The notes under the pieces were generated by a model. It did no database searches. It had not been told where the DNA came from and saw only the letters and a list, made by a program, of their open reading frames with translations. Of a stretch of DNA of 47,274 nucleotides, positions 15,475 to 47,274 are shown piece by piece (positions within the stretch are counted from its first letter, which is position 1; each line of letters begins with the position of its first letter). This DNA comes from Chthoniobacteraceae bacterium (GTDB taxonomy: Bacteria; Verrucomicrobiota; Verrucomicrobiia; Chthoniobacterales; Chthoniobacteraceae). Where the stretch lies: the NCBI GenBank assembly GCA_031409335.1, contig JANNWY010000021.1, positions 1 through 47,274 on the forward strand, in the 5' to 3' direction. Position numbers and translations under genes: made by a program.

Positions 15475-16467
15475 ATGAAAACTCCATCATCCTCCATGAA
15501 CTCCCTCCGTCTCTCCACCGCGCTCCTCATCCTGAACAGCGCGATCGCCACCGCCTCCATTCTTCCCTCGCCCATCGCCACCGGCAGTGCCCCGCCCTTC
15601 AATCCGAGCTTCGCCGCGGCCAACACCGTGGACAATACCGAGCTCGAATACGCCTAGGCGAGTCAGGGCACGAACACCTTCCTCGAATATAGCTTCGGCT
15701 CTGCGCAATCCTTCGACAGCATCGTCGTCATCAATCGCGACAGCGGCGGCATGAGCGACCTGATCGGCAACTTCACGCTCACTCTCGACGGCCTGGCCAC
15801 GGTCTCGGTCCTGCGCACGCCGGAGCGCGGCGCGAGCCTCGTGCATTCGCTCGGCGGACTCTTCACCGCGACCTCGGTCCGCCTTGATGTCGATACGATC
15901 GGCATCGGCGACAGCTTCAACAACACCGGCGCGATGGAGGTGCTCTTCGTCCGCAAGCCGACGGGACAGACGCCCGTCGCAGCGGGTATCTTTGATTCGG
16001 CACCTGCCTTCAATGGCTTCTTCGCCGCCAACAACTCGATCGACGGCGTGGTCGGCCGCAGCAGCGACGGCGTCGATGGCCCGGAATACGCCTCGGCCAG
16101 CCTCGGCGCGGGCACCTTTGTCGATTTCGACCTTGGCCTGGAAATGCTCGTGGGCGGCTTCGATTTCTTCGACCGCCTCGCCGATGAGGATCGCACCACC
16201 GGCTTCGACCTGATCTTCAGCACCGATCCCATCTTTGGCGATGTCGGCGATGTCGTGCGGTCCTATGGAAACACGGGCGTCGGCACGAGCGATGTCTTTG
16301 CGGGAATTTCGGCGCGTTTTGTCCGCTACGATGTCACCTCGAATCTGGGCGGTGCCGCAGCCAATACCGGCATCAGCGAGCTCACGTTCTATCAAGTGCC
16401 CGAGCCCTCGACCGTCGCACTGCTCAGCCTCGGCCTGCTCACCGCGGCCCGTCGGCGGCGGGCCTGA
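15475..16467 (+). pseudogene. PEP-CTERM surface protein with two discoidin-like repeats and an in-frame TAG at 15655-15657
   Basis: Signal peptide. ORFs 15475 and 15751 are in the same frame. C-terminus is VPEPSTVALLSLGLLTAARRRRA. Confidence 0.85.
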
Positions 16468-27952: not shown

Positions 27953-28229
27953 CCGATCTTTCGCACTTGTGCGTCCGAGGATCCCTCCGTCAGAGAGGCC
28001 GGGCGGATTTTGTGGCAAAGGTCGGCCACACAAAATCGCGCGACACTCGCTCTTCAGCCTGCGGGCGGAGGGGCGGCGCGGATGCGGGGCGGGGGTTGGG
28101 CGGGCAGGGTCCAGCCCAGTTGCAGGAGCAGGGCGGCTTGTTCTTTTTCGGGTTCGGTGATGCGCGGCAGCACCAGGCGGCGGCCGTCGCGGGTGTCGAA
28201 CTCCACGTCCACCATGACGATGGCGCGCA

Positions 28230-28254
28230 GCGGCTGCCCTAGCGCAGCCGAAGG
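28230..28254 (-). repeat. 25-bp palindromic mini-insertion (family A)
   Basis: ccttcggctgcgctagggcagccgc. Removal restores QVLTHLRAIVMVDVE. Confidence 0.8.
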
Positions 28255-28340
28255 GGTGGGTGAGCACTTGCCAGGGCGTGAGGCTCGGGGCGCGCGGGGC
28301 GGCGAGTTTTTTCAGGCACACCCACATCGCGTAGCCGAGG

Positions 28341-28432
28341 AGCCGAGCGTAGCGAGACAGCCAGCCGAAGGCTGCCCCGAAGCGAAGCGGAGGGGTGAGC
28401 GCCGCAACGGGGCGATGTGGGCGGCGTGAAGC
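28341..28432 (-). repeat. 92-bp palindromic mini-insertion (family B)
   Basis: Ends ...ggctgtctcgctacgctcggct. Removal restores AHILVAFLGYAMW. Confidence 0.85.
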
Positions 28433-29175
28433 AACGCGACCAGGATGTGAGCTTCGACGCGTTCCTCTTTCCAATGCCAGATGGGGCGCACTTTGATTTC
28501 GCTTTTCAAGGTGCGGAAGGCGGCCTCGGCTTCGGTAAGCTGGATGTAGGCGGCCCAGAGCGCGGCGGGGTCGTTCTGGCCGGGCCAGTGCGCGCGCAGC
28601 AGATACGCGCCGTCGCGGGCGACCGAGGCTCGCCATTTGTCGCGGTCCCATTCCCACTCGACGCGGCCGTCGCGCAGTTCGTAGCGGAGTAAAAAGCGGC
28701 GCATCGGCCGGTGGCGCTCCTCCAGCCACGCCATGCGGCGCTCGATGGTGCGCGCGTCGGTGCGCGCGCCGCCGCATGGCGTGCTCTTTTTCCACGCGGC
28801 CCGCGCTGCGGCAGAGCACGTAGATTTCCTCCGAGTCGGGGCAGAGCTTGACTTCGACTTCGCCGCTCGCCCGCGTCCAGTCCGCGTCGGTGAGATGCTG
28901 CTCGAAGTCGCGCAGCTTGGGCTTGGGCGTGCCCACTAGGTAATGTGCGCCACGTTCGCGCAACCACGCGAGATTTTCCTCGCTGGTGATGCCGCAGTCG
29001 AAGAACCACACGCGCCGCGCCGCGCCGTGTTTGCTTTCCACCTGCTCGACGATCGTCTTGAGCGTGCTCACGTCCACGGTGTCGCCGCTGAAGATTTCGT
29101 AGGTGAGCGGGAACCCCTCGGGCTTGACGATGAGCGCGATGACGAGCTGCTTGCAATCGGGCCGGTGATCGCGCG

Positions 29176-29243
29176 AATCGAGCGGAGCGAGATAGCCAAA
29201 GGGCGGAGCCTTTGCCCGAAGGGCAGCGCCGGAGGGCGCTGGC
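29176..29243 (-). repeat. 68-bp palindromic mini-insertion (family B)
   Basis: Ends ...ggctatctcgctccgctcgatt, with ATT at both junctions. Removal restores RGYSRDHRPD. Confidence 0.88.
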
Positions 29244-29312
29244 AATAGCCGCGCCGCGCCTTGGGGATGGTGTCCGCGCTGCCCTCGAAATACGTGCTCG
29301 TCAGATCGTAGA

Positions 29313-29352
29313 GCCGTTTCGACAAGCTCAAGGCCCTGAGCGGAGCCGAAGG
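29313..29352 (-). repeat. 40-bp REP-like mini-insertion (family A)
   Basis: ccttcggctccgctcagggccttgagcttgtcgaaacggc, with GC at both junctions. Removal restores FDVVLYDLTSTYFEG. Confidence 0.88.
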
Positions 29353-30222
29353 GCACCACGTCGAAGCTCGCGTTGAAAAGATCCTTCCAGCGCGCGGCGA
29401 CGTGCTGCTCGATCGCCGCCTTGTGCTCCACGAGCCGATCCGGGCAGCGGTAAAGGCGATCCTTTTCCGCCGCCGCAAAATCGCAGTCCAGCAACACGTC
29501 CATCGCCGTCTGCGGAAACCATTTCTCGTGGACGAAAAGTTCACTGCGCGGATCCAGCAGACGGTTCACCGCGAGCAGCTCGAGCACCTTCTCCCACGGC
29601 ACCTCGCCGCGCTCCTCGCCCAGCCGCGCGCGCCAGAACTCATCGAGCCCCAGTGCGCGCCACAGCCGGCATCCCGCCCAGCAATCCCCGAAACGCCGCG
29701 GCGCGCACCCGCAGCGAGGACAGCCGCACCTCCACCACATCGTCCGCATCGGGCGGCGCCGCGCCATCGCGATCCGTGAAGAGCTGGCGCTGGAGCCGTG
29801 CCCCGTCCTCCTCATTGAGGATCTCCAGCGTGCGCTGCCAGCTCGCCGTCTGCGTTGTGTTCAACTCGCCGAGGTGAAGCACCTGGCGCTGCACCACGCG
29901 GCCCGAATGCACGCGCAGACTTTCGCACAGCGCGTAGTGGACATGCTCTTTTCCGTCCTTCCTGCGGACACGGCGTTTGAGAAACATGCCCTCCGATGAT
30001 AGCCCCGCCGCCATGAAAGCAAGAGGGCAGGTCGGCCCACAGGGGGGTGGCGCATTTTGGGAGAAGAACGACCAAACAGCCAGAACGCTTTACGCCAGGC
30101 GGACCCACGAAAATATTCCAAAATGCCCGATATCTGCGAAAGTTGGGCTAGAGTTCCCGTCCTCACAATTTGTGATTTCCGTGTCAGAAGTTGTGGCCTG
30201 TTTGCAGACTGCCATTTCGGCC

Positions 30223-30425
30223 AGCCCAAAGGGCTGAGACAAGCCAGCCCAGGGCAAGGAGCGCAGCGACACCGCCCTGGGTGATGTGTGGAAAAAGGGC
30301 CAAGCGCTGAAGGGCGACACAAAAGCGCACATGCTTTGTGTCGCCCCTACAGGGCTTTGCGCGTGTGTCGCGGGTGAACCCAGAGCGTTGCCCCTGAGCT
30401 GGTTTGTTGGCTCACCTTTGGTGCT
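30223..30425. repeat. REP/MITE-like inverted repeat related to the 6823-7041 element
   Basis: agcccaaagggc...agcccagggcaa...gccctgggt...gcgctgaagggcgacacaaa / tttgtgtcgcccctacagggct... Confidence 0.75.
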
Positions 30426-47070: not shown

Positions 47071-47274
47071 TGTCATTTCGACCGGAGCGCAGGCGGAAAG
47101 GTGGGCGGAGCGTAGTGGAGAGCCGAGTTCGCGAGACGGCCCAGTGGAGACGTGGGGGCAAACCTCAAACTTTTCTTCGGGCCAGGCGGTGCGGAGCACA
47201 AACGTCCTGCGGCTCCGCCCCGCCTTCGCCCGCCCAAGAAAAGTTTGAGGTTTGCCCCCACGTCTCCACTGGGC
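47071..47274. repeat. Composite REP-like element ending in a 39-bp perfect inverted repeat at the window edge
   Basis: tgtcatttcgaccggagcg... start. Arms 47139-47177 and 47236-47274 are exact reverse complements. Confidence 0.8.

Follow-up and report, generated by a model that had tools for sequence, protein, structure and literature searches.

Why does a single transposase gene of a Chthoniobacteraceae bacterium hold four short palindromic inserts, and what put them there? The gene lies on contig JANNWY010000021.1, of which positions 1-47,274 are the window. An earlier note, made from the sequence alone, had read the inserts as clean insertions from two mini-element families, A and B, and had proposed a strand-specific insertion system that hits mobile DNA. 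The features concerned are these:

27953..30147, minus strand: IS1634-family element with imperfect terminal inverted repeats at ~27953-27967 and 30133-30147 and flanks TTAG and CTAG, read from the sequence
28054..29987, minus strand: IS1634 transposase pseudogene with four insertions, two deletions and 9 private changes, including R296C and L183P
29702..29708 (near 29706), minus strand: 2-bp deletion in a GC run, a frameshift unrelated to the mini-elements (tblastn and L260 alignment)
28757..28765 (near 28761), minus strand: deletion of ~59 bp, a frameshift unrelated to the mini-elements (tblastn and L260 alignment)
29313..29352 (alternative parse 29314-29353), plus strand: A40, a family A doublet of 40 bp whose plus strand has GCGGAGC and CCGAAGG mini-hairpins
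29176..29243, plus strand: B68, the 68-bp variant of family B (L260 alignment)
28341..28432, plus strand: B92, the 92-bp variant of family B (L260 alignment)
28230..28254, plus strand: A25, a single family A hairpin of 25 bp (L260 alignment)

The host element has inserted where a kinase-WD40 gene has its stop codon, and a relative, L260, shows the same ends. Intact relatives are known as protein (P0001, 589 aa, ~91% identical, which matches NCBIfam IS1634, NF033559, at 305.9 bits against a cut-off of 100) and as DNA (L260, 91% identical in nucleotides, with 172 mismatches in 1884 aligned bases). The DNA alignment to L260 contains exactly four window-only gaps, of 40, 68, 92 and 25 bp, and tblastn with P0001 yields contiguous pieces (aa 97-212, 213-235 and 236-375, then a piece ending at 504, 504-531 and 532-589), which together confirm the four clean insertions. 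Removing each insert was said to restore the local frame, but the gene as a whole stays closed because of the 2-bp and ~59-bp deletions, which the earlier note had missed; the latter measures 89 bp against L260, which is itself 10 aa longer. The boundaries of A40, B68, B92 and A25 can each be moved by 1-3 bp, and the junction duplications of that size reported earlier are this ambiguity, with no target duplication needed. Pattern searches found no such inserts in the other genes of the window, in agreement with the first description.

The differences between the pseudogene and L260 are mostly synonymous (87 vs 56), and the pseudogene has 9 private changes among 333 invariant columns, a number within the range of intact relatives (4-15). 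Consequently, the transposase died recently and took its four hits in little time.

We searched public contigs for support of the inserted and empty alleles. One X1 contig, possibly from the source sample, spans A25 and B92 with zero differences. Both X1 and X2 contigs also connect A40 with its right flank and, for B68, the left half with the flank on that side. The summed depth of B68 is 94-321 vs ~3-13 in its flanks, zero contigs span it, and near-identical copies lie in an IS3 (two copies) and an IS4-like gene of the same genome. Related IS copies show empty sites, with 40 positions skipped in three X4 contigs and 94 skipped in one X2 contig, but no insert-free allele of the source strain was seen among the public contigs, which drop rare variants. 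Of the runs X4-X20, which hold small shares, X4 alone was covered. The best 80 metagenomic IS1634 relatives, ranked by intactness, held neither A nor B.

The anatomy of the inserts is that of single-stranded elements with one distinctive strand, and to this extent the reading of the earlier note is supported. The plus strand of the four inserts carries six GCGNAGC and five C(C/G)GNA(G/C)G motifs, and the minus strand none. Every insert has GCGNAGC and CCGNAGG-type motifs, on the strand opposite to the one described before, and all four bases occur at position N. On general grounds, the stems of these mini-hairpins would be extended by tandem G.A pairs. In the available part of PMC13037366, GCGNAGC is described as a DNA mini-hairpin that contains a sheared G.A pair, resists exonucleases and is formed by GNA loops only. 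ViennaRNA folds were excluded from the evidence; sheared G.A pairs are not modelled there. Both families have two unlike ends and neither terminal inverted repeats nor target-site duplications.

We surveyed the genome (7.9 Mb in 326 contigs, 98% complete) for further copies. A strict A pattern matched 29 times and a strict B pattern nine times, compared to one and zero matches in a Markov control (order 6) as large as the genome, so both families are real and multi-copy. A profile search added few B copies. Loose A-pattern matches (137 vs 140 in the control) were set aside as chance, and three hits were dropped as likely chance (C149:30266, C316:58812 and C164:14561). We merged C15:31663 with C253:21811 (overlapping contig ends) and C208 with C235 (one IS5 site), and counted C15:30662, inside a REP, as intergenic.

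This left 44 events, 33 of family A and 11 of family B, and 22 of them lie within transposase genes. The families hit are IS1634 twice (four and seven events), IS3, IS4-like, IS5, IS630, IS1182, IS1380, ISL3 and two Y1/RAYT genes; half of these mobile-gene events (11/22) are thus clustered in just two IS1634 copies, and IS genes with open frames, such as ISL3, are also hit in frame. The other events fall in an integron-integrase fragment (1), an hsdM pseudogene (3, one B nested in another), a broken fragment (1), ordinary genes, all in frame (6: smc, sua5 and four others), and intergenic DNA (11, in ~747 kb of non-coding sequence). The density is ~280/Mb in IS, RAYT and RT loci vs ~15/Mb in intergenic DNA, a ~19-fold excess computed over 52 loci (79 kb with each padded to 1.5 kb) whose census queries were partly drawn from hit loci and may miss families and collapsed copies; when the IS census is doubled in size, the excess is still about tenfold. 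The second IS1634 (L027, C316:232-1885) is more decayed and holds seven A and B inserts; the first three share a strand and the last four lie on the opposite one, a pattern that would suit two episodes.

We compared this excess with broken genes of non-mobile origin. No event was found in 53 candidates (115 kb), a rough control in which a Pfam check of 40 showed 5 to be adjacent genes, few to have confirmed mid-domain breaks and most to have no family. Per locus, the difference is 11/53 vs 0/53 (p=0.0005), and vs 2/37 under a harsher count (p=0.065). The control therefore favours targeting without settling it. The proposal that the elements hit mobile DNA stands as an excess in mobile genes here and in B across 21 genomes (below), but not as exclusivity, given the copies in smc and sua5 and the distribution of A elsewhere.

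The two families use different and very short targets. Family A, whose tail is variable and which needs no target duplication, enters at W-G^ on the GA-rich strand (G in 21/24 sites, W in 23/24), which on the TC strand is C followed by A or T (C^T/C^A, 21/24 sites). Family B enters at D-T-T^S on the other strand than the GA-rich one. A fixed orientation was not borne out: relative to the host gene, 23 mobile-gene events divide 14 vs 9 (p=0.40), and a proxy for replichore gives 15 vs 11, no bias. Neighbouring events share a strand in 11 of 15 cases (p=0.06). Outside IS elements, nine of the 12 A copies tested lie in REP loops or heptamer arrays, compared to a 2.7% background; B targets in mobile genes show no excess of local hairpins, and B nested inside B was observed. 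Three genes, smc, sua5 and one more (C153:3361, C197:842 and C166:2583), contain in-frame heptamer arrays that host A copies, and one heptamer forms 127 tandem arrays in the genome.

We next examined the bases that border B. A single nucleotide position has been hit in diverged hosts by different B variants (IS3, IS66, hsdM, hsdR and IS4), and base -3 is C in 0/51 sites vs 37% in the background. In three IS3 copies with 61-65% identity, the empty site would read DIS, vs D-x-T-Y in 112/112 matched intact homologues. HsdM shows K to N in 7/7 proteins with the insert after Y, while K is kept in the other 18; the second IS1634 shows L to V at its B junction, where 0/20 relatives have V, and an IS256 shows H to Q. 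Both B inserts of the window differ silently from L260 at junction positions, and at base -3 the B92 junction has G, against C in L260 and in an X2 contig. The simplest reading would be that up to three B junction bases come from the donor, by annealing and repair rather than by a clean cut-and-join. Such overwriting favours the templated option of the earlier note, which had suggested a HUH/RAYT-like or templated system, and overwritten bases could serve as a signature to tell insertion by repair apart from strand transfer by a HUH enzyme.

Is the bias towards mobile genes repeated elsewhere? Within the same bacterial family, 21 of 60 genomes contain the B tail, and all 73 copies were retrieved. 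Genes for transposases, Y1 proteins or reverse transcriptases account for 34 of them (assigned by Pfam in 18 cases, by tblastn in 12 and by motif reading only in 4); 8 copies are in hsdM or hsdR, 1 in yhcG, 5 in ordinary genes and 19 in intergenic or unplaced DNA. A further 4 were placed by eye at attC-like sites, and 2 in genes that are prophage-like or unknown. A wider sample gives ~21/81 B copies in mobile genes, and the 15 copies in three more distant genomes (G114, G110 and G156) were read by eye as intergenic. Records titled as Verrucomicrobiota groups supply 73/80 B loci. Family A is widespread, in 39/201 genomes of the class and 102 viral stretches, but 0/29 copies sampled at one per genome from other Verrucomicrobiae lie in transposases. 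For B, the mobile-gene bias is therefore strong in this bacterial family; for A, it is strong only in this genome. Plasmid searches for A and B returned chance-level matches only.

Frame-breaking, which the earlier note had found in all four inserts, is not the rule. The commonest form of B is a 63-bp version that stays in frame, and A is in frame in smc and sua5. The 68-bp, frame-breaking B lies in mobile genes in 13/14 copies, while 18/43 B copies in mobile genes have lengths that are multiples of three. In six IS3 copies the insert has entered at the orfA/orfB junction; in several genomes (L568, L583, L585, L603, L604 and L632) B lies at or beside this junction, where OrfA would stay intact. 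Among the HsdM homologues P0241-P0265, 18/25 bear in-frame peptides derived from B, a share biased by a query that itself bore one. The two sites concerned lie within the DAAEYKH motif, five bases from each other. By eye, B also lies within putative integron attC sites (L571, L578, L613 and L614), and one prophage gpA terminase region holds three B copies (L053-L055).

We searched for an enzyme flanked by the same hairpins. A GIY-YIG query, picked because A adjoined it, matched 19 loci; at 13 of them A is upstream of the gene in sense orientation (7 strict matches and 6 by-eye variants), on one side only, and it is absent from the other 6. The A-linked genes encode ~90 aa and mostly follow tRNA 3' ends, and their proteins (the L216 clade) are GIY-YIG by Pfam and Atlas, with UPF0213 structures nearest in the PDB. 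In A-rich genomes, A is within 300 bp of 3/23 GIY-YIG matches. For A, such a neighbour is thus seen in other genomes only: the A-type gene was not found in this assembly. No enzyme was found for B, which is near GIY-YIG genes in 0/80 genome loci and 0/45 viral loci and whose profile gave no score against GIY-YIG loci. The sole small GIY-YIG gene here (L047, C129:651-986) encodes an Ssn-like protein of 111 aa and is flanked on both sides by a third, SRM-like repeat family with ~25 intergenic-looking copies, one at window position 47072. The genome has no DUF559 nuclease. Small GIY-YIG genes at tRNA 3' ends elsewhere (L442-L452, L455, L460 and L207-L222) are accompanied by duplicated tRNA fragments and several further hairpin families. 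The genome also has 11 Y1 matches and further RAYT-like genes, and A sits, nested, in two RAYT-flanking REPs and in two Y1 genes; in A- and B-rich genomes, 0/30 Y1 loci are flanked by A or B.

Three kinds of published system come close. According to the available text of PMC11893778, SsnA, a GIY-YIG nuclease, acts on a hairpin repeat as ssDNA and cleaves just one of its strands, a few bases upstream, and for Ssn nucleases cutting is demonstrated there and insertion is not (Chenal et al. 2025). Like A, the Ssn/NTS-SRM repeats are short directional hairpins of which one strand is functional; they adjoin a single-domain GIY-YIG gene of ~90 aa, as A does at loci of other genomes, and the A core resembles the CGTC/SRM stem-loop. 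However, A and B have no GTC head, 2% of NTS are intragenic whereas A and B are often in genes, and the A-linked proteins differ from Ssn in being nearest to UPF0213 structures and at tRNA ends (PMC11893778, as far as available). The published degenerate SRM pattern matches 0/4 window inserts on either strand and is barely above background genome-wide (70 vs 57), but it is narrow, since it also misses the repeats adjoining two Ssn-like genes.

The CGTC- and GTAG-tagged REPs, which the accessible part of PMC3733652 (Di Nocera et al. 2013) reports in large numbers from the verrucomicrobium O. terrae, share with A and B palindromes of 20-40 bp, dimers (as in A40), nesting in palindromes and in-frame intragenic copies. 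The same part leaves the CGTC class without a transposase and mentions "a few fortuitous associations" with transposase genes, whereas half of the A and B events here are inside such genes; A and B are also untagged, with variable tails and overwritten junctions, and neither GTAG nor CGTC stands at the hairpin foot of the four inserts. REPIN/RAYT elements are likewise non-autonomous ssDNA hairpins inserted without duplication (PMC6006769 and PMC8266576, in the parts available), but insertion at CT or CA (PMC8266576) is found for A only (21/24), with B at D-T-T^S, and REPINs are mostly extragenic and of high copy number, whereas 11/44 events here are intergenic and copies number tens, not hundreds. 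In overall behaviour, A and B thus seem to work like CGTC-REP/SRM and REPIN elements and yet fail their defining tags.

Weaker likenesses were also found. The E. coli RtT (record L506) has a head like that of some B copies and lies in a duplicated tRNA-Ser 3' end, where it occupies TT^C within the T-loop; BLAST gives only E=5, the B profile fails on RtT and the B copies in this genome are away from tRNAs, which makes it a lead and not a homology. At E<=5, Rfam covariance models, including that of RtT, gave no relevant match to the inserts. Rickettsia palindromic elements and MITEs are likewise small in-gene inserts, in frame where the gene works, but MITEs have the terminal inverted repeats and target duplications that A and B lack (both from the available text of PMC3733652). 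We found neither the families nor such a mobile-gene bias described in the literature, where supplements and figures, such as the REP consensus figures of PMC3733652, may list relatives.

How, then, did the inserts arrive? We consider it roughly an even chance (probability about 0.5) that they belong to two gene-less, REP/SRM-like hairpin families enriched in mobile and other accessory DNA, which would spread as short ssDNA pieces, be cut by small GIY-YIG (Ssn-like) nucleases and be patched in by repair at targets of 2-4 bases. By likeness to SsnA, a small nuclease would recognise the GA-rich strand as ssDNA and cut nearby, and the mini-hairpin would shield the released fragment. Its 2-4-base end could then anneal to exposed ssDNA, where repair would fix the fragment and at times overwrite bases. 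Accessory DNA would be hit most because it may most often be single-stranded, in hairpin loops, in slipped repeats and in the recombination loops of regions that one partner alone carries. Purifying selection would strip frame-breaking copies from working genes and leave the in-frame ones. Counting against this explanation, the matching A-type GIY-YIG gene is missing here and a B enzyme was not found; we also know of no joining step for a GIY-YIG hydrolase. The choice of a query that A adjoined, the unbiased A of other Verrucomicrobiae, the intergenic B copies of the three distant genomes, the lack of a hairpin excess at B targets in mobile genes, the clustering of events, the rough broken-gene control and the RAYT-like A target weigh against it too. 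A bolder form, which we hold only tentatively, is a transposase-free class of mobile DNA: exonuclease-proof GNA mini-hairpins, released by tiny GIY-YIG nucleases and written in by short-patch repair with overwriting of target bases, that home to population-polymorphic DNA looped out in recombination. They would then be sequence-blind hyperparasites of the whole mobilome, from IS elements, introns and prophage to restriction islands, attC sites and repeats.

A resident RAYT, the HUH tyrosine transposase of REP/REPIN-type insertion, could instead mobilise the hairpins in trans by cutting ssDNA at C^T/C^A and joining it again. The A target has the cleavage dinucleotides of TnpA-REP (available text of PMC8266576), duplications are absent, resident RAYTs are plentiful and partly carry A, and REPs within tnpA-REP genes are on record (PMC6006769, part available); these points keep a RAYT alive as the main rival. 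But A and B have no GTAG guide, the Y1 loci are unflanked, B has another target with overwritten bases unlike clean strand transfer, and A tracks a GIY-YIG clade, which makes a RAYT rather unlikely. We also find it unlikely, and more doubtful, that there is no targeting at all, such that insertion occurs anywhere at 2-4-base sites and copies last only where no selection acts, with dead IS genes as the freest space. The tiny targets, the in-frame copies in working genes, the two other lesions of the window IS1634 and the unbiased A of other genomes would all fit. Against it stand the ~19-fold density and the empty non-mobile controls, four hits in a gene that shows no measurable decay, intergenic copies confined to other repeats, in-frame hits in open IS genes and a B bias repeated in 21 genomes.

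That the host maintains the hairpins as a defence that inactivates transposons by frame-breaking, an option raised in the earlier note, is very unlikely. All four window inserts break the frame, the 68-bp B is nearly confined to mobile genes and the IS3 junction is hit six times; however, in-frame B is the commonest form and over a third of mobile-gene copies (18/43) are multiples of three, the window IS has two other lesions, the host's own hsdM and hsdR are repeatedly hit, core genes carry A, and no dedicated locus was found. Scarcely credible is an origin in assembly chimeras, by which an abundant community repeat was joined to low-coverage IS contigs. The depth of B68 and its want of a spanning contig would suit such joins, but empty sites are base-exact, one set of junction rules holds in >80 loci from many assemblies, copies in genes show in-frame selection and one contig spans A25 and B92.

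The explanation by nuclease release and repair would have wider consequences. If it is true, such hairpins influence how long IS elements last, insert loops into core proteins and change type I restriction genes time and again. The case bears on how RAYT-less REP-like repeats spread; it offers a candidate enzyme-hairpin pair, A with the L216-clade GIY-YIG protein, and an excess in mobile genes measured across one bacterial family.

Several smaller observations concern the same genome. A comEC-like gene is present, which is too common to count as evidence. An otherwise coding-like gene at window positions 15496-16020 has an in-frame stop, with no Pfam family on either side, and cytochrome oxidase subunit I has a mid-gene stop codon at C37:50037, which could reflect a genuine lesion or a fault of the assembly. 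Beside the IS1634 element, at window positions 30240-30410, lie REP-like palindromes, one of which has a GCGCAGC motif in its loop.
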